The notes: generated from the letters alone by a model not told the origin. 64,000 nucleotides of DNA from an uncultured Candidatus Saccharibacteria bacterium (GCA_964490125.1 CAZBAJ010000001.1:152243-216242); one strand, 5' to 3'; numbered from the stretch's first letter, positions 2,584 through 61,055 are shown. Translations and numbers: made by a program.

Positions 2584-3843
2584 ATGAGCCAAGCTACCAC
2601 AGCGCAAATAGACGGAGGAATTCCTTTAGTGGGCACGGTTAAAGCTTCCGGGAGTCGCGCGTTGGCGTTAAAACTTATTTACGCGTCCATTTTAAGTGGA
2701 GAGGAGTGTGTACTTTCCAATGTTCCTAAAGTCAAATATGTGTTGGACGACTTGGAGATTGCCCAAAATTTGGGCGTAACAGCTAGTTGGAGTGGCAATA
2801 CGCTAACCATAAATTCCGGGCAGTTAACCCAGTTTGCTCTTGAAGGCGACTTAGTTGCTAAAGTTGCTACCGCGCCTTTTTTAGTGCCAGCTTTAGTGCA
2901 TAAATTTGGCAAAGCGTCGTTACCAAAAAGTCAAAGAATAATGCAGTATGCCAAAATTTGGCAGGCGTTTGGCATGGAGGTATCCGAAGACTTTAATAAT
3001 TGTTTTGTGGAGGCGGTAAAACTAGTAAGTGGTGAGGTGGTTTTGCCCTACAAGTCGCGCGTTTTAACAGACATGGCAATTATTACCGCGCTGTTTATTT
3101 TGGGTGAAAGTGTGATTTTAAATCCCAGTACAGATGTAGAAACGGACGACCTGATTGACTATTGCAACAAACTTGGTGGGGAAGTTACACGGAGGGAGGA
3201 CGGTTCTATTGTAGTTACAGGTTGCGCGGTATTTAAAAGTGTTAATTTTACTTTGCCGTACGATCGGGAGGAAGCTGGATTTTTTATTGTAGCAACCTTG
3301 CTTACTAATGGAAATATTACTTTGGTGGACTTGGATAGAGCGCGCCTTCTGCCGTTTGTAAATTGGCTGTCAAAGGTTGGCGCAAGTTACGAATTTGTTG
3401 GTAGCGACATGCGGGTTTGGCACAATAGTGGGACGACCTTTGAGCCGTTTGACCTCACCGTTGCTCCGCACCCGGGCTTTATTACCGATCTTGCGCCTTT
3501 TGCCTGTCTGCTTGGCTGTTTTGCTGGTGGCGAAAGTAAAATAATCGAGCATGTCTTAGCCACAAATTTGGACTATCTTAAGGGTTTGAATCGGCTGGGG
3601 GCTAAAATAACCACCGAGCGGGTAGGCGAGTCACTTCAAATTAGTATCCCGGGTAATGTAAAGTTAAAACCCGGAAAAATGGTAATCTCTGACTTAAGGT
3701 ATGCTTTAATAAGTCTGCTTTACGCTTTAGTGGTGGAAGGTAAGCACGAGCTTGCGGACTACAACATGGCAGAGGACAGTTTTGAAGGTATTAGCCAACG
3801 CCTAAAATCCTTAGGTGCGGACATTAGTCTAAATGGGCTATAA
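2584..3843 (+). CDS. murA: UDP-N-acetylglucosamine 1-carboxyvinyltransferase-like (MurA/EPT family), divergent
   Basis: The enolpyruvyl transferase fold shows in GTVKASGSRALALKL, NVPKVKYV, VAPHPGFITDLAPFA (compare MurA TAPHPAFPTDMQAQF) and a MurA-like C-terminus. It lies in cell-wall gene context. The catalytic-loop region looks atypical. Confidence 0.65.
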   Translation: MSQATTAQIDGGIPLVGTVKASGSRALALKLIYASILSGEECVLSNVPKVKYVLDDLEIAQNLGVTASWSGNTLTINSGQLTQFALEGDLVAKVATAPFLVPALVHKFGKASLPKSQRIMQYAKIWQAFGMEVSEDFNNCFVEAVKLVSGEVVLPYKSRVLTDMAIITALFILGESVILNPSTDVETDDLIDYCNKLGGEVTRREDGSIVVTGCAVFKSVNFTLPYDREEAGFFIVATLLTNGNITLVDLDRARLLPFVNWLSKVGASYEFVGSDMRVWHNSGTTFEPFDLTVAPHPGFITDLAPFACLLGCFAGGESKIIEHVLATNLDYLKGLNRLGAKITTERVGESLQISIPGNVKLKPGKMVISDLRYALISLLYALVVEGKHELADYNMAEDSFEGISQRLKSLGADISLNGL

Positions 3844-54533: not shown

Positions 54534-55862
54534 TTAGAAATTGAACATTAAATAATTGGGTTTTAAAATTAGTAAAGCGCCGATCAACACCATCAATAAT
54601 CCCCCAATAAGGTTGGAATATTTGGCGTATTTTGTGGAAATTCCGGTGACTTCCAAAGTCCGCATAGAAATAAAAAAGACTATAAAGTCGTCCAACATAA
54701 AAAAGACAATGTACAAGGCTATGTAGAGGTAGTATTGGATTGCTGATAAGCCGTTTAGTGTCAAGATTTGCGTAAAGATTGCTGGAAACCCCGCGGAACA
54801 AAAGAGTTCCACCAAATTAACCGCAAAAGCCAGCCCAGCGATTCCCAAAAGGGCAGTCAGCAAACTTTTGTCGTAAGTAATTTTCTTAAGTTTATCAAAG
54901 GTTTTTTTACGGTTTTCGTCCTCTGTAACCACGCAACCCATTTTATGCTGGAGATACTTGTTTAGGCTAAAAGCACCTGCCAGAATAGCAAATCCGGCAA
55001 TAAGGAGTCGTACCCAGACAATAAAACCCACAAACAACAGTATATTTAGCCACGCGGACATAAAAAGAAAATAAACCAAACCGGAAGCCAGCAAAAAAGT
55101 TATTCCCAAGAGCCATCTGCGGTTTTTGTTTGGCAGATTTACAAGCAGGCTAATTAAAAAGAGCAAAACCCACATAGCGCAGGGGTTAAAACCATCCAGT
55201 GTACCTATAACCACGGCAATAAGCGGTAAGGAGAGCGTTGTTAGGTTAATTTTGCCGACAATTGGGAGCACGACTTCTTTTGGTAAAGAAATCGGCGCAT
55301 TTTTCCACGGATCCGGCTTTGGGTTAGCGGGTTCGGGATTGGGCTTTTGTGTAGGTATAAGATCGTTTGGATTAGATGTGACCGATGTGGGATGAGGCGC
55401 GGGACTGGGTTCTGTTTTAGGCGTTGGGGCGGGATTTATTTCTGCTATAACATCTTTACAATCGTTAATCTGACAATAATCAATGTATTCATGGATTTGG
55501 GCTCCTGTGGTGTCGGCTGTGTAATAACCGCCAATATGATTCTCTCCCACGACGGTAAACGGTACGCCTTTAATGTCAGCATTAAGCTTTTCTCCTACTT
55601 TTTTTAAGAGTTCGCGGTTTTTAGCGTTGCCCCAAACCTCAAACTTGTTAATTGCTAGGTTTGGGTAATCCTTCTCAAGTTTGTCTAGAAACTTCTCTTC
55701 CTCCGCGCAGTGTGGGCATCCGTTACCCCAAAAAAAGTACAGGTTGACTTTGTTAGAAGTGCTAGTTTCTGCCCTTACATTAACAGAAAGTACCGTAAAT
55801 ACAGTAAAAATCACTGCCATGAGCACTTTGTAGTAAGGTGGACAAAACTTTCGGAAATTCAT
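54534..55862 (-). CDS. Thioredoxin-like domain fused to a CcdA/DsbD-type transmembrane thiol-disulfide transporter
   Basis: Signal peptide, then WGNGCPHC, a Pro-rich linker and a CcdA-like TM domain (DGFNPCAMWVL). Confidence 0.8.
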   Translation of the reverse strand: MNFRKFCPPYYKVLMAVIFTVFTVLSVNVRAETSTSNKVNLYFFWGNGCPHCAEEEKFLDKLEKDYPNLAINKFEVWGNAKNRELLKKVGEKLNADIKGVPFTVVGENHIGGYYTADTTGAQIHEYIDYCQINDCKDVIAEINPAPTPKTEPSPAPHPTSVTSNPNDLIPTQKPNPEPANPKPDPWKNAPISLPKEVVLPIVGKINLTTLSLPLIAVVIGTLDGFNPCAMWVLLFLISLLVNLPNKNRRWLLGITFLLASGLVYFLFMSAWLNILLFVGFIVWVRLLIAGFAILAGAFSLNKYLQHKMGCVVTEDENRKKTFDKLKKITYDKSLLTALLGIAGLAFAVNLVELFCSAGFPAIFTQILTLNGLSAIQYYLYIALYIVFFMLDDFIVFFISMRTLEVTGISTKYAKYSNLIGGLLMVLIGALLILKPNYLMFNF

Positions 55863-55877
55863 TAAAAGATTATAACA

Positions 55878-56658
55878 TTACCCTCGCTTTTGATTGAATA
55901 AAAAATCAAGGGCTTTAGTGATTGAATTGTGATCAATGGACTTGCCTAAAGTAACCGAATCCAGTTGTTTTGGGAAATGTTCTAAACTCGTAGTAAGAAT
56001 CTGATACTTTACTTTTTCTTTGGTAAGGCAGGATTCAATATAGCTATGATTTATCCTATTATCGTTTGGGTTTAAAAGAATTAAATAAGGTACTTTATGA
56101 AACTTCGGTCGGCTGTGGTCGGTTAATATCAGCTCCAATACTGCAAAGAATGTTTTTGGAGAAATTTCTTTGAATATCGCATCCCGTGTTGTTTGAGAGT
56201 GTTTTGCGAAAAAACCAAATTTTATTACTAATTTCTCGCGCAAAACATACTTTTCTATATGAAGTAGTCGTACAATTTTACATAACCCAAGAATTCCAAA
56301 TTGCTTGAATTGATTTATGCTCAAGGATTCTTTGTTTAAATAAGGAAATATGCCGATAATTCCGGAGCATTTTTTAGCAGACTCACAATCGTTAACTACT
56401 TTAAACCCAAAGCTCGCCCCCCCCCATGTAGAAATTTTCTAGTTTAAGCTTGGTTACCACGGCATCAACATAACAACTGTAATCTTTTAGCGAAGCCGGT
56501 TCTATGGCAGGAATGTTTTTTATAAAACCCGGAAGGTCTACCGGAATTACTTGAAAAAATAAATTCAAATAACCTATAAGACCATTAAGCGCTTTAGAGT
56601 TTGTAGGAAATGAGTGAACGAATATCAGATTTGCTTTAGTCATTTTTATGTTTCTCAA
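55878..56658 (-). pseudogene. Alpha/beta hydrolase split by a frameshift in a C9/G9 homopolymer (56417-56425)
   Basis: The 85-aa ORF (56401..56658; LIFVHSFP) and the 148-aa ORF (55878..56324) are in frames that differ by one. The downstream frame is open through the tract. With 8 G the join reads YMGGASFGF, restoring a GxSxG nucleophile elbow. Confidence 0.6.
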
Positions 56659-56905
56659 TCAAAGATACGATCTCTTGTTTAGAAGGCTCGCCGGAGAGTC
56701 GTGTGATTTCTTTGTCGTCCTTGTCCAAAAAGATAAAAACCGGTAAATTTCTACCTACATTCCACTTTTTCACCTCGTCAGGTGAATCGTCGTACTCAAA
56801 ATAGCGGGTTTCCAGCCAAGGATTTTCCGCCTCAATTTCCTTCCATCGAGGTCGCATAACTAAACAACCCGGACACCATACTGCACCAAACTTTAAAACC
56901 TTCAT
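56636..56905 (-). CDS. trxA: Thioredoxin
   Basis: WCPGC active site. 89 aa. Confidence 0.85.
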   Translation of the reverse strand: MKVLKFGAVWCPGCLVMRPRWKEIEAENPWLETRYFEYDDSPDEVKKWNVGRNLPVFIFLDKDDKEITRLSGEPSKQEIVSLIEKHKND

Positions 56906-56998: not shown

Positions 56999-57928
56999 CT
57001 AAAGCAAAGTTAGCCATGCTAAACCCAGCACGATTCTGTAAATTCCAAAAGGTAAAAAGCTGTGTTTTTGGACAAAGTTAATAAACAGTTTGACGGCAAA
57101 TAGCGCGGTGATAAAGGATCCTACAAACCCTATAATTAGTAGGACGACTTCCTGGCTGGAAAAATTAAAGTTTGACTTATAAAGATCCAGACTTGTGGCG
57201 GCAAGCATTGTGGGAATTGCTAGAAAAAAGGAAAACTTGATAGCTTCTGTTTTATTTAACCCCATTAGCAGTCCGCCAAAAATGCTTGCCGCCGATCTTG
57301 AAACTCCTGGAACTACGGCAAGACTTTGGAACACGCCGATAACCAAAAGCCTCGGTACGGATAAGTTTTTAAAAAGCTCTTTGGCTGGTGTTATTGTTGG
57401 GGGAATAAGTCTGGGATTACTATACTTTTTGGCGTGATTGCCATTGTATATATTCGGTATACCGTTTTCGTAATGCGAAGTCGTTGGTACATGTGGGTCG
57501 GACAACCCGATGTTTTGGTTGGTAGCGTTTGTTGTATATTTATCCGATCGATTGGTTTTATCCACCAACTTGTCAATAACCGTAAAAACCAAACCGCCGA
57601 GAATTAACGCTAGAGTAGTAACAAGTCCGTTGCCAATAAGTCGCTCCTTAATAAAGTCGTACAGAAAAAAGCCAATAATTGCGGACGGCAAAAAAGCCAG
57701 AATTGTTTTGTACCAGAGCTGGGTGTTGCGGGAAAGCTCTTTAAAATACAGCGCGACAACGGCAAGGATTGCTCCAAGCTGGATAATGACCTCAAAGCTT
57801 TTAACAAAATCGGTTTGGGAAACGCCTAATATTTGTGAAGTTAAGATTAGGTGCGCGGTGGAGGAAATCGGCAGGAATTCGGTAATTCCCTCGACCACAG
57901 AAAGTACAATAGATTCAATGAAGTTCAT
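56999..57928 (-). CDS. uppP: Undecaprenyl-diphosphatase UppP/BacA with a ~65-aa hydrophilic insertion
   Basis: VEGITEFLPISSTAHLIL and the C-terminal SRSAASI box are present. An insertion NRSDKYTTNATNQNIG...HAKKYSNPRL is present. Confidence 0.85.
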   Translation of the reverse strand: MNFIESIVLSVVEGITEFLPISSTAHLILTSQILGVSQTDFVKSFEVIIQLGAILAVVALYFKELSRNTQLWYKTILAFLPSAIIGFFLYDFIKERLIGNGLVTTLALILGGLVFTVIDKLVDKTNRSDKYTTNATNQNIGLSDPHVPTTSHYENGIPNIYNGNHAKKYSNPRLIPPTITPAKELFKNLSVPRLLVIGVFQSLAVVPGVSRSAASIFGGLLMGLNKTEAIKFSFFLAIPTMLAATSLDLYKSNFNFSSQEVVLLIIGFVGSFITALFAVKLFINFVQKHSFLPFGIYRIVLGLAWLTLL

Positions 57929-57931
57929 AGT

Positions 57932-58360
57932 TTAAAATAAAAAATCTAGATACTTGTCAACCATATTTATATTGATTTCTTTAAACCTATCTATAAATCC
58001 GTGTTGACCTAGTAATGGTGAAGACTGTTTTTCCACAAAGAAAACAACCGTATCATTGATTACAATGTCGCCAAAAAACAAGTCACACCCATGACCCCAG
58101 GCATGGGCTTCGGTTCCTCCAGCACCGGTTATTGGCAGATACATGCCTTTTTTTATTTTATCTATAGAAAACCCCAAAAATACTTGGGCATACTCAAAGG
58201 GAAAGACATTTATAGCTGAACCTGTGTCAAAATAGCAACTTATCGCACGACCCATCATGTGATTGCACAGCAAGCCGACTTTTATCCACGGAGCGTAGTG
58301 AATAATTTGACCTTCCTGATTGGGTAGTAGGAATGTTGTTTCGGTTAAACCTACCTTCAT
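57932..58360 (-). CDS. Retropepsin-like (clan AA) aspartic protease
   Basis: The DTGS catalytic motif (YFDTGSAINVFP) is present. ~140 aa, single domain. Confidence 0.7.
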   Translation of the reverse strand: MKVGLTETTFLLPNQEGQIIHYAPWIKVGLLCNHMMGRAISCYFDTGSAINVFPFEYAQVFLGFSIDKIKKGMYLPITGAGGTEAHAWGHGCDLFFGDIVINDTVVFFVEKQSSPLLGQHGFIDRFKEININMVDKYLDFLF

Positions 58361-58563
58361 AGAATTATAGATGGAACATAAACGGAATTTAGTGGCATGA
58401 CCTTCTCCACAGTGTAGTCGTTATTTAGTGTCCGCATTTTTTCTGCTAGTACTGCTAAACTCTTGTCTGCTTCAAGCACAGCCCCTGTAACAGGATCCCT
58501 AGCCAGCCACATATTTTGATATTTAAGCTTAAAGTCTATTAACGCCTTGTTTTTTGTTTTCAT
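58357..58563 (-). CDS. Small protein (68 aa), DUF5678-like, overlapping the protease gene start
   Basis: MWLARDPVTGAVLEADKSLAVLAEKM resembles the WVAI...G.V pattern I recall for DUF5678. A 4-nt overlap with the downstream protease gene. Confidence 0.35.
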   Translation of the reverse strand: MKTKNKALIDFKLKYQNMWLARDPVTGAVLEADKSLAVLAEKMRTLNNDYTVEKVMPLNSVYVPSIIL

Positions 58564-58567
58564 AAAG

Positions 58568-58822
58568 CTATTCTACCACACTCGCATCGTTATAAACTTC
58601 ATCCGATTGACTTGACTGCAAAGGCTCTTCCTGCGGAGTTGGTGTAGGTAATACATTTTCCACGACAGTTTGCTTTTTTACCGGTCTAAGTCTATTTAAA
58701 ATTCCACTGTTGTAAACAAAAACCAAGACATAGACCAAAACAACTAAAAATGCTCCTCTAAATATTAAGTCCTTAAGATACTGGTCGTCTTGCCTTTTTT
58801 CCATGTAAAAATTAAACCACAA
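58568..58822 (-). CDS. Small single-TM membrane protein; hypothetical
   Basis: One hydrophobic helix (GAFLVVLVYVLVFVY). Confidence 0.35.
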   Translation of the reverse strand: MWFNFYMEKRQDDQYLKDLIFRGAFLVVLVYVLVFVYNSGILNRLRPVKKQTVVENVLPTPTPQEEPLQSSQSDEVYNDASVVE

Positions 58823-58852: not shown

Positions 58853-59842
58853 ATGCAGATGAACGACTTGATTTGGGGCAAGGTAACTATCGACGATAAG
58901 GATGTTCTAGCGATTTTAAAGCATCCGGCTATGGACAGAGTAAAAAGGATTTGGATTTCTTCATACGGTTACCTGTTTAATTTGCAACGGAGTTCTACGC
59001 GGTTTGAGCATTGTTTAGGAGTTTACTTGTTATTGAGACATTTTAAGGCATCCACAAAAGAGCAACTTGCCGGGCTGATCCACGACGTTTCTCATACAGC
59101 GCTTTCGCACCTTTCTACCTACGCAATTCAGGGAAAATATACGGGCGAGGAGTTTCACGAGCTGATGCAGAAAAAGTTTATTGACGATTCGGGCTTAGCT
59201 GATTTGTTTGTTAACTTAGGCTACAATGCGGACGACTTATTACACACCGATAAATTTACGCTATTGGAAAATAACCTGCCGGATATTTGTGCTGACCGTA
59301 TTGATTACGCCCTTCGCGACGGTTTACATTTGCAAATACTTTCCCGTCAACAAGCGGATCAAATTATCAATGGGTTGGTTATAAAAAACGGCGAGTTTGT
59401 ATTTTCCAACGGTCAGTCAGCATTTTTATACTCATTTAACTTTTATTTACTAAATTTAATGTTTTACGGTTCCCCCGCGGAGGCTCATTTTAACAACGAC
59501 TTTGGAGCTTTGGTTAATTATGCCATGAAGACGGGAGTATTAAAGGAAAAAGATTGGTTTAGTGACGATGTTTATTTGATTGGAAAGCTTAAAAAGTCCA
59601 AAAATGCCAAAATCCAAAAGTGGCTAGGTAAATACAATCAAAAACTAGTAGTTTATGAGGACAGCGCGCATTCGGACAAGGTTTTTTCTAAAAAGATTCG
59701 GGTAGTGGATCCAAAAGTTATTGTGGGCGGCAAAATAAGTCGATTAAGTGAGATTAATGCCGTTTATTGCAAATTAATTACCGATTACCAAAAAAACCAT
59801 AAGGAACATACATTACCCGTCAAGGTTAATTATAAAGATTGA
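58853..59842 (+). CDS. HD domain phosphohydrolase
   Basis: H...HD motifs (FEHCLGVYLL; LIHDVSHTALSH). Confidence 0.75.
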   Translation: MQMNDLIWGKVTIDDKDVLAILKHPAMDRVKRIWISSYGYLFNLQRSSTRFEHCLGVYLLLRHFKASTKEQLAGLIHDVSHTALSHLSTYAIQGKYTGEEFHELMQKKFIDDSGLADLFVNLGYNADDLLHTDKFTLLENNLPDICADRIDYALRDGLHLQILSRQQADQIINGLVIKNGEFVFSNGQSAFLYSFNFYLLNLMFYGSPAEAHFNNDFGALVNYAMKTGVLKEKDWFSDDVYLIGKLKKSKNAKIQKWLGKYNQKLVVYEDSAHSDKVFSKKIRVVDPKVIVGGKISRLSEINAVYCKLITDYQKNHKEHTLPVKVNYKD

Positions 59843-61055
59843 AGTCGGTCCAAACTTCGTCCCGTAAAGCAGGACCTGCGGTGACTTTTATCTCTGTTCC
59901 ATCCACAGTCATTACCCCAAAAATAGCCGACTTCACATCGACATTTGAGAAAGCTTTATCGTCCCCATATCTTCCACCTGTATTAAAGGCTAAAAGCCTG
60001 GAAATATCGTATGGGGTTGGAATCTCTCTTTGTGTAAGTACCCTCATTAAATGTAAGGCTCGGTCAGCTAAGGCCTGTCTCTGCAAATTCCAAGCCAATG
60101 CCTCTTCATTCGCATTTTCATTACCTTCTAAAACCACCTTACCGTTTTGAGTATAAATATTTGTGCTTATCATGCGTGTGCCAGCTTTGGATTCGAGTTC
60201 TATTTTATCTACGGTGTCGAGTGCGAATTCTACTTTTCCTGCTTCTATGCCTACTTCCCCACGCCTTGCATAATTGACTACATAACCATCTGCAAACGGG
60301 GCTAAAGCTCTCATAATATCGTATGGATGCATGCCGTTCCCTATATAAGAAGCAGTCCACACAGCGGTATTTGCCAAAATTGCAGGTTCCTGATCCTCTT
60401 TTGTATGTTGCATATCGACACATAGAAACAAATCCTTTCCGAAGGTAAATCCAGCACCAGGTAGTAAGTCCGGGTATACAAAAGAGAAGTATTCGCTACC
60501 CCTAACCCCCTTTATCTTCACTATTCTCGTTTTGTCCACACGAGATCCGGGTTCATCCTCAACATCTTCTTCGTTATGCCAAAATATCACCTCTCCGCTT
60601 TCACCTCTAAGCAGACCGCTGATACATCCCACATTATCGTTTTGCAAAGATAAGGCGATAAGTAGATTAAGTTTGTCTCGTTCGTAAATGTCGCCCAAAA
60701 GTTCTGAGATTTGTCGATGTTCTAAGGAGCTAAAGTCTATTTCATCGGACCAGCTTTTAATTGCTTTCAAATATGCCTCCAGCCCCCCTTTAATTAATGG
60801 GTTCTCTTCATGCTTGATTCTATCCTCGATCACAGACAGACACTTGTCCGCAAATTCTAAATCTACCCTGAATACCGATGGATCATCCTCATCTATTAAT
60901 GTATCAACGGATTTTCTAGCCGCGTCCCGTACTTGTCGACCCAATTCTCTGTAGCTTTCCTCCAACGACAGTTCCGAAAGATCGACCAACTCAAGACTCC
61001 CAAGTCGCTCTTTTTCTATCTTTAGTCCTTCTAAATTAACCATATTTGCACGCAC
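59826..61055 (-). CDS. Hypothetical protein, possibly a C45/Ntn-hydrolase-like self-processing enzyme (Gly-Cys at ~140)
   Basis: DNVGCISGLL could be an Ntn autoprocessing site. Assignment tentative. Confidence 0.3.
   Translation of the reverse strand: MRANMVNLEGLKIEKERLGSLELVDLSELSLEESYRELGRQVRDAARKSVDTLIDEDDPSVFRVDLEFADKCLSVIEDRIKHEENPLIKGGLEAYLKAIKSWSDEIDFSSLEHRQISELLGDIYERDKLNLLIALSLQNDNVGCISGLLRGESGEVIFWHNEEDVEDEPGSRVDKTRIVKIKGVRGSEYFSFVYPDLLPGAGFTFGKDLFLCVDMQHTKEDQEPAILANTAVWTASYIGNGMHPYDIMRALAPFADGYVVNYARRGEVGIEAGKVEFALDTVDKIELESKAGTRMISTNIYTQNGKVVLEGNENANEEALAWNLQRQALADRALHLMRVLTQREIPTPYDISRLLAFNTGGRYGDDKAFSNVDVKSAIFGVMTVDGTEIKVTAGPALRDEVWTDFNLYN

Follow-up and report, generated by a model that had tools for sequence, protein, structure and literature searches.

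A retropepsin-like aspartic protease paired with a divergent DUF5678-family protein in a predicted translationally coupled cassette of Patescibacteria

Two overlapping genes and their products

The window analysed here is a 64,000-nucleotide stretch of DNA from an uncultured Candidatus Saccharibacteria bacterium (GCA_964490125.1 CAZBAJ010000001.1:152243-216242), whose minus strand carries, between positions 57,932 and 58,563, the two overlapping open reading frames (ORFs) that are the subject of this work. The first, at 58357..58563 (-), encodes a basic (pI 9.3), soluble protein of 68 residues that profile homology would place as a divergent member of the DUF5678 family. The second, at 57932..58360 (-), encodes a 142-residue protein predicted to be a single-lobe, retropepsin-like aspartic protease of clan AA. 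As read from the sequence, the two genes share the four nucleotides ATGA at 58357..58360 (-), with the TGA stop codon of the small gene set inside the ATG start of the protease gene. These coordinates and the stop/start overlap agree exactly with those in an initial annotation of the same DNA, which had described a protease of about 140 residues preceded by a 68-residue protein. In what follows, L-numbers denote contigs or loci of the lineages compared and P-numbers denote members of the small-protein family.

Among 5.8e9 proteins only two further clusters of the protease were found at the 90% identity level of clustering, with 63-65% identity to the window protein, and a word-indexed search with the small protein retrieved only itself. 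Each contig that carries one of these close protease homologues also has a 68-codon ORF, 54-59% identical to the small gene product of the window and with the same 4-nt overlap. Between lineages the synonymous sites are saturated (proportion of synonymous differences, pS, 0.77-1.0) at a proportion of nonsynonymous differences (pN) of ~0.25, and in the closest pair, L001 and L012, the ratio of nonsynonymous to synonymous substitution rates (dN/dS) comes to 0.11 in the small gene and 0.07 in that of the protease. Because homologues of both ORFs (54-65% identity) retain their lengths and their overlap, and because pN lies far below the saturated pS, both can be taken as genuine genes and not chance ORFs, and the substitution pattern places both under purifying selection.

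The larger product had been annotated as a single-domain clan AA protease with a DTGS motif, and its homologues bear this out. Taken singly, the window protein scores below the gathering thresholds of the Pfam families PF13975 (16.0 bits, E=0.019; threshold 28.2) and PF13650 (14.0 bits, E=0.084; threshold 24.3), in a match that covers the whole domain model. Five of six homologues match PF13975 (best E 5.8e-5), four of the six match PF13650 (best E 3.7e-6), and RVP was weakly touched by one. A profile built from 12 sequences matches the protease domain of DDI1 (2i1a) with E=7.9e-6, followed by the protease of human T-cell leukaemia virus 1 (HTLV-1; 4.1e-4), DDI2 (1.3e-3) and the proteases of feline immunodeficiency virus (FIV) and equine infectious anaemia virus (EIAV; 2e-3 to 9e-3), and retropepsins make up nearly all of the 60 matches listed. 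Profiles of three and six sequences gave no significant match in the PDB.

Across the 12 aligned members of the protease family, which are 18-64% identical to the window protein, residues D45, G47, G63, G79 and G81 show no variation, residue 46 is either T or S, and P24, F53, F108, L117, G118 and F122 are nearly invariant. The catalytic motif D45-T-G-S48 (58217..58228 (-), within FDTGSA, residues 44-49) is matched in the profile alignment by the catalytic DTGA of DDI1 and by DTGAD in HTLV-1 protease, and the putative flap hairpin I77-T-G-A-G-G82 (58115..58132 (-)) aligns with GVGTG of DDI1. The C-terminal motif P115-LLG-QHGFIDRF126 (57983..58018 (-)), which holds the nearly invariant L117, G118 and F122, appears to be what we take as the counterpart of the hydrophobic-hydrophobic-Gly motif of retropepsins. 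By alignment, the conserved residues would thus fall in three elements of retropepsins: catalytic triad, Gly-rich flap and C-terminal hydrophobic-Gly motif. No signal peptide or transmembrane segment was predicted in the 142-residue protein. An AlphaFold2 model from a three-sequence alignment was all-beta with a predicted local distance difference test score (pLDDT) of 38.5 and was unusable; the fold assignment rests on the sequence profiles. We assign the protein on these grounds as a divergent single-lobe clan AA retropepsin-like aspartic protease, predicted to be cytoplasmic and with an intact D-T/S-G site. Since D45, G47, G79 and G81 are invariant and the family profile matches solved retropepsins, the enzyme is probably active.

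Compared with the solved retropepsins (DDI1, 2i1a and 4z2z; HTLV-1, FIV and EIAV proteases), the window enzyme has the same single lobe of about 100-140 residues, the same D-T/S-G-A/S following a hydrophobic strand, a Gly-rich flap and a C-terminal hydrophobic-Gly. It differs from them in being prokaryotic and stand-alone, with ~20 extra N-terminal residues and with neither ubiquitin-like and ubiquitin-associated (UBL/UBA) domains nor a polyprotein context, and its identity to them is too low for detection from a single sequence. With the prokaryotic clan AA peptidases (COG3577/COG5550; APRc, RimB/RloA) it shares PF13650 and PF13975 as best matches, and all of these are small single-lobe enzymes presumed to be homodimers. 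By sequence, the enzyme would form a divergent new subfamily of these little-studied prokaryotic single-domain peptidases of the COG3577/COG5550 type (PMC2642776). APRc is embedded in the outer membrane (PMC4140852), and RloA and RimB are secreted or RimK-linked, the Rlo enzymes carrying signal peptides and their operons encoding transglutaminase-like and ATP-grasp proteins (PMC11957051); the window protease, unlike APRc and the Rlo enzymes, has neither signal peptide nor transmembrane segment and has a DUF5678 partner instead. The claim in the initial annotation that prokaryotic retropepsin-like proteases have no known substrates was overstated, as OmpB/OmpA are in vitro substrates of APRc (PMC4140852) and sequences rich in glutamate are cut by RloA (PMC11957051).

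The 68-residue protein of the window gave no match in Pfam, NCBIfam, PHROG or PADLOC, and no match to DUF5678 (PF18929; gathering threshold 23.2 bits) even at E up to 10. A profile was built from the window protein and four close homologues, and an exhaustive search with it of 1.84e9 cluster representatives retrieved 35 at E up to 1e-3, all of 57-103 residues. DUF5678 is matched by 30 of the 38 aligned family members (E up to 0.1). Six of ten members scanned individually reach or pass the gathering score (P0020, 31.5 bits; P0044, 29.8; P0037, 29.7; P0036, 24.5; P0015, 23.8; P0040, 23.4), and the small protein of L016 scores 23.2 bits. P0020 is itself the small gene product of an intact pair, that of L018, and the window-seeded profile retrieves bona fide DUF5678 members with E from 2e-15 (P0020) to 4.6e-4. 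By this transitive homology the 68-residue protein is placed as a divergent DUF5678 member. Its earlier description as DUF5678-like thus holds, with the core sequence present in the window protein and the family membership reached through its relatives.

The core of the small protein, W19-L-A-R-D-P-V-T-G-A-V29 (58477..58509 (-)) in the family alignment, has W19 in all 38 members and A21 in 37, and the family shares with DUF5678 an aromatic-x-x-x-W-V-A ... V core. Beyond the 49 positions of the Pfam model this subfamily has an additional conserved tail with the motif LP-x-[ND]-x-x-[FY]-[IV]-P, represented in the window by P57-L-N-S-V-Y-V-P64-SIIL (58360..58395 (-)), in which P57 is nearly invariant. 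Sixteen of the 38 members terminate exactly at the tail-motif proline, and the residues that follow it, from 0 to 17, are variable. The family is basic, with a median pI of 9.6. The small-protein profile found no relative in the PDB, and a structural model of moderate confidence (pLDDT 68) had no informative structural neighbour. We know of no function or structure for DUF5678.

Pairing of the two genes across lineages

The gene downstream of the small gene was inspected in 17 lineages, the distant loci having been found through intact small proteins. In all 17 a homologous DTG/DSG protease or its remnant lies directly downstream, and no lineage among them is without a protease trace. Recurrent co-occurrence of the two families and conservation of the small ORF, the two points on which the initial annotation had made its fixed two-gene unit depend, were therefore both found, the second in the 35 cluster representatives described above. 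The pair is intact in 12 lineages: that of the window, L001/L012, L002, L015 (candidate division WWE3), L016 (Saccharibacteria), L018 (Patescibacteria), L020, L021, L024, L028, L029 and L032. The L028 pair is cut by the contig end, and the L032 protease is an uncalled ORF with a GTG start.

The protease is broken in the other five lineages. In L017 an internal deletion (L017:3204-3263) leaves ~12 N-terminal and 10 C-terminal codons, and in L030/31 an independent internal deletion (L030:about 3220-3330) has kept the first ~12-14 and the last ~25 codons. L025-27, from three metagenomes of different sources, share an identical in-frame TAG (FPAD*GRS; L025:494) in an otherwise well-conserved protease gene; it is either a nonsense allele that has become fixed or, possibly, a codon that is read through or recoded. 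L022/23 retain a faint N-terminal protease remnant followed by the DDE transposase of an insertion sequence element, and in L019 both the small gene and the protease are broken. The small ORF is open despite the broken protease in L017, L030/31, L025-27 and L022/23, and that of L017 gives a dN/dS of 0.08 against the intact L016. Decay of the cassette is thus recurrent, and the protease is usually the casualty.

The genes on either side of the pair change from lineage to lineage. They are GreA and an MGMT-type DNA-binding protein in L015, YchF and rpsF-ssb-rpsR in L018, thioredoxin and Obg in L029, and a histidine kinase, a response regulator and a major facilitator superfamily (MFS) protein in L024; the decayed copy of L030 has a Type ISP restriction enzyme gene and a DUF3800 gene next to it. 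Beside the pair of the window lineage stand a membrane protein or a Ferric_reduct protein, and UppP. Because the flanking genes differ between lineages, it is the small gene and the protease gene that form the unit, to the exclusion of the membrane ORF and uppP: an autonomous two-gene cassette that is inherited together. In the identity of both proteins and in their obligate pairing we have high confidence.

Matches were found in 5 of 185,579 species genomes, all five of them metagenome-assembled genomes (MAGs) of Patescibacteria, and the contig names of the closest metagenomic relatives mark 0.1-0.2 um groundwater filtrates. The organism of the window probably belongs to the same group. Scans seeded with the protease gave no match in the genome collection and close relatives only in the metagenome collection. 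The cassette is rare and accessory, sitting between different housekeeping genes in each lineage and decaying repeatedly; its accessory character follows from the finding of only 35 clusters among 1.84e9 representatives and of five genomes in 185,579.

Junction, promoter and neighbouring genes

Eleven of the 12 intact junctions overlap, as ATGA or GTGA (4 nt), as TGATG or TAATG (1 nt), or by 17 nt in L032. The L028 junction is a 2-nt spacer, and the broken pair of L025 has a 13-nt overlap. None of the 12 intact pairs shows a Shine-Dalgarno-like purine-rich motif ahead of its protease gene. Because the frame of the small gene relative to that of the protease gene varies between lineages, and because none of the 35 representatives is a fusion, translation of the protease is predicted to be coupled to that of the small gene by termination-reinitiation and not by frameshifting.

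Upstream of the small gene an extended -10 element, TGgTAGAAT (58570..58578 (-)), ends 6 nt before the ATG; as read from the sequence, its TG is at 58578-58577 and its TAGAAT at 58575-58570, inside the 3' end and stop codon of an upstream membrane ORF. A TAnnnT at a 6-7 nt spacer precedes the small-gene ATG in 13 of 16 loci, with the TG extension in 9 of the 16, against a background at random window positions of 7.7% for TAnnnT and 0.43% for the TG-extended form. This suggests a leaderless or near-leaderless transcript of the small gene, and the cassette would bring its own promoter, identified by match to the consensus. The same arrangement, an extended -10 (TGnTAnnnT) ending 6-7 nt before the start codon, is found at 6 of the 52 long ORFs of the window, those starting at 55862(-), 48206(-), 20672(-), 39633(+), 25894(+) and 41588(+), and for that reason seems to be how leaderless transcripts are ordinarily started in this organism. 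A TAnnnT at a 5-8 nt spacer precedes 15 of the 52. An Rfam scan of the window found tRNAs only.

Three further genes were considered as parts of the module and rejected. The first is an ORF of 84 codons at 58568..58822, 4 nt upstream of the small gene, whose product has one strongly hydrophobic segment, with one transmembrane helix predicted. The initial annotation had pointed to it as a third small membrane protein at the locus; the ORF exists, and it is conserved only in L002 and in L008, a contig 99.8% identical to the window. In L001/L012 its place is taken by a Ferric_reduct protein, and in distant lineages by GreA, YchF, thioredoxin or others. On the other side of the pair, uppP/bacA (56999..57928 (-); BacA E=2e-71) follows the protease gene after a 3-nt gap, and a thioredoxin gene (56636..56905 (-)) lies downstream of uppP. 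Both were set aside as the flanks differ elsewhere and as the thioredoxin of L029 is only generically similar, at 27% identity.

Several features of these neighbours were observed in passing. In L012, a Hainich groundwater contig, uppP is nearly all deleted, with the last ~25 codons (...ATILPFGIYRIAVGLFWLFAIIRV) left, and the protease pair therefore directly precedes the thioredoxin gene. The UppP of the window (309 residues) has at residues about 131-188 a Pro/Asn/Thr-rich insertion of ~51 residues, probably loop-like, which is absent from the 69%-identical orthologue of L001 (261 residues); Pfam matches the window protein in two stretches. Downstream of the thioredoxin gene, a 254-codon ORF (L008:2368-3132, no Pfam match) is broken in the window into 56401..56658 and 55878..56324 (-) by one extra G at position 56425 relative to L008; it would be either a frameshifted pseudogene or an assembly error. 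Downstream of this ORF lies a gene for a 442-residue protein (54534..55862 (-)) with a thioredoxin-like CPHC motif near its N-terminus, then a Pro-rich linker, and a multi-pass membrane domain at its C-terminus. On visual inspection it is similar to proteins of the DsbD/CcdA type; the identical gene of L008 has no Pfam match, and the gene has its own extended -10 box. On the upstream side, an HD-domain gene (58853..59842 (+)) separates the cassette region from a 409-residue protein (59826..61055 (-)) with no Pfam match. In L002 the gene for a 52%-identical homologue of this protein lies right before the membrane ORF, without an intervening HD gene, so the HD gene is a lineage-specific insertion or loss.

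Proposed partner-controlled proteolysis and its alternatives

Our preferred reading, which we put forward tentatively, is that the small protein restrains or regulates the protease stoichiometrically, in the manner of an antitoxin or inhibitor. Translation of a leaderless mRNA would yield the small protein first. The protease, having no ribosome-binding site of its own, would be made only by ribosomes just finishing the small gene, and because it would be translated only in this way its partner would always be present at least 1:1. The small protein would then bind the protease and check or gate its activity, as an antitoxin or a dedicated inhibitor does, with the tail LP-x-[ND]-x-x-[FY]-[IV]-P as the best candidate for the contact, placed at or close to the substrate cleft or dimer interface. 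Loss, titration or degradation of the partner would set the protease on cellular targets. The cassette of the window lineage may additionally be read through into uppP and the thioredoxin gene, a lineage-specific arrangement. We infer a restraining partner from several features taken together, namely the rare, accessory and autonomous character of the cassette, the obligate pairing, the partner-first coupled translation, the intact active site, the purifying selection on both genes and the recurrent decay that usually strikes the protease.

A small gene followed by that of a larger effector, the two overlapping by 4 nt, is the textbook arrangement of type II toxin-antitoxin systems. Like these, the cassette consists of two small co-directional genes, the smaller first, with a 4-nt or 1-nt overlap and its own promoter (by consensus only), and it is sporadic in distribution and variable in its genomic context. 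Among loci sampled through intact small proteins, four lineages have only the larger gene broken and one has both genes broken. It differs from them in having no known toxin or antitoxin domain and no recognisable DNA-binding domain, and in being single-copy and off mobile elements in the collections searched. We know of no aspartic-protease toxin. Restraint of a protease by a polypeptide encoded beside it has parallels elsewhere. Staphostatin, a co-encoded inhibitor whose gene lies downstream of that of its protease, restrains staphopain inside the producing cell, and the HIV-1 transframe peptide, upstream of the protease in the same polyprotein, restrains it. The cassette partner is likewise encoded beside a protease and, we propose, co-expressed with it; it differs in being separate, upstream and, by prediction, translationally coupled, and has no sequence relationship to either.

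Several observations weigh against restraint of this kind. Pfam and NCBIfam show no antitoxin-like or other toxin-antitoxin domain in either protein, and PADLOC gave no significant defence or toxin-antitoxin match, its marginal matches reaching E of about 0.02 only. Searches of plasmids, phages and viral contigs with both proteins were all negative, and there is no second copy of the cassette within the window. The decay tally is biased, since the distant loci were sampled through intact small proteins and a locus that had lost the small gene but retained the protease would be invisible; in L019 both genes are broken and not the protease alone. The promoter is a consensus match only. The position of the cassette in the window lineage has been stable over ~35-40% protein divergence, with the pair 3 nt from uppP, and such a stable, packed position looks more housekeeping than selfish.

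This last point leads to the first alternative, that the small basic protein is an adaptor or activator which delivers substrates or nucleic-acid-bound targets to the protease or stabilises its active dimer. On this view the two proteins would make up an ordinary housekeeping or stress protease of two subunits, comparable to DDI1 with its UBL/UBA domains. DDI1 is the nearest solved relative, and its protease domain works alongside accessory domains. Obligate pairing and coupled translation would suit such a complex as well, as would the median pI of 9.6 of the small family and the long-stable place of the window pair among envelope and redox genes (uppP, thioredoxin), with which it is probably co-transcribed. 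We nevertheless consider this explanation rather unlikely, as the sporadic distribution and repeated loss weigh against a housekeeping role, the small gene keeps an open frame, seemingly under constraint, where a deletion has removed the protease, and no small protein-protease fusion occurs among the 35 representatives.

A second possibility is that the small protein is the dedicated substrate or precursor of the protease, its tail being cut at [FY]-[IV]-P to mature or inactivate it. Retropepsins often cut aromatic/Pro junctions and process neighbouring polypeptides, and the conserved aromatic-aliphatic-Pro motif of the tail, followed by 0-17 variable residues, has the look of such a site. APRc, moreover, is autolytic (PMC4140852). 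In the 16 of 38 members that end at the proline there is nothing downstream to remove, however; four lineages retain the small gene with a broken protease, and no modifying or export genes are conserved nearby. These features make a substrate role unlikely.

A role in anti-phage defence or abortive infection, with the restrained protease freed by a phage cue, is quite improbable. It draws on repeated marginal PADLOC matches of the protease (E about 0.02) to PDC-M52B in four of seven members and to PDC-M08B in three of the seven, each the B component of an uncharacterised candidate defence system. One decayed copy adjoins a Type ISP restriction-modification gene and DUF3800, another adjoins a transposase, and small proteins with a retropepsin domain accompany type III CRISPR loci in Sulfolobales (PMC3973734). 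The PADLOC matches are not significant, however, and most intact copies lie among housekeeping genes and not in defence islands.

That the two genes are mere operon neighbours with no functional link is very improbable. In genomes of the Patescibacteria type, genes are tightly packed and often overlap, which would allow for chance adjacency, but not readily for adjacency in 17 of 17 lineages at 18-64% protease identity, with unrelated flanks and a conserved overlapping junction. A Gag-Pro-like programmed frameshift giving a small protein-protease fusion that is later self-cleaved, suggested by a superficial analogy to retroelements, where a retropepsin ORF likewise overlaps the ORF before it in a different frame, is also very improbable and is disfavoured by the variable frame of the junction (4-nt, 1-nt and 13-17-nt overlaps and a 2-nt spacer), the lack of a conserved slippery sequence before the stop, and the absence of fused proteins among the 35 representatives, all of 57-103 residues.

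Returning to the small protein as a restraining partner, its most specific form would make the cassette the first of its kind among toxin-antitoxin-like or abortive-infection systems, with a retropepsin effector and a DUF5678 neutraliser that acts through a pseudo-substrate C-terminal tail; this we regard as doubtful. Literature searches on DUF5678, PF13975/PF13650, retropepsin toxin-antitoxin systems, Patescibacteria retropepsins, COG5550/COG3577/TIGR03698 and PDC-M08/M52 found no description of the pairing, and in the searchable literature there is no mention of DUF5678 in the context of a protease pair or of a retropepsin toxin. The cassette is thus an undescribed obligate pairing of known protein families.

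DUF5678 is without an assigned function, and very little work exists on the cytoplasmic single-lobe aspartic proteases found in prokaryotes; their obligate and apparently coupled pairing gives both families a concrete and cheaply testable hypothesis, that of partner-controlled proteolysis. Should the pair prove to be a two-subunit housekeeping protease, it would be a modest addition to the protease inventory of Patescibacteria. If it is a toxin restrained by its partner, aspartic proteases would join the effector types of toxin-antitoxin and defence systems, and the cassette would offer a small model for regulation of a retropepsin by a polypeptide encoded just upstream. A retropepsin toxin with a DUF5678 antitoxin would provide the first function for DUF5678 and a new class of enzymatic toxin, in the episymbiotic Patescibacteria.

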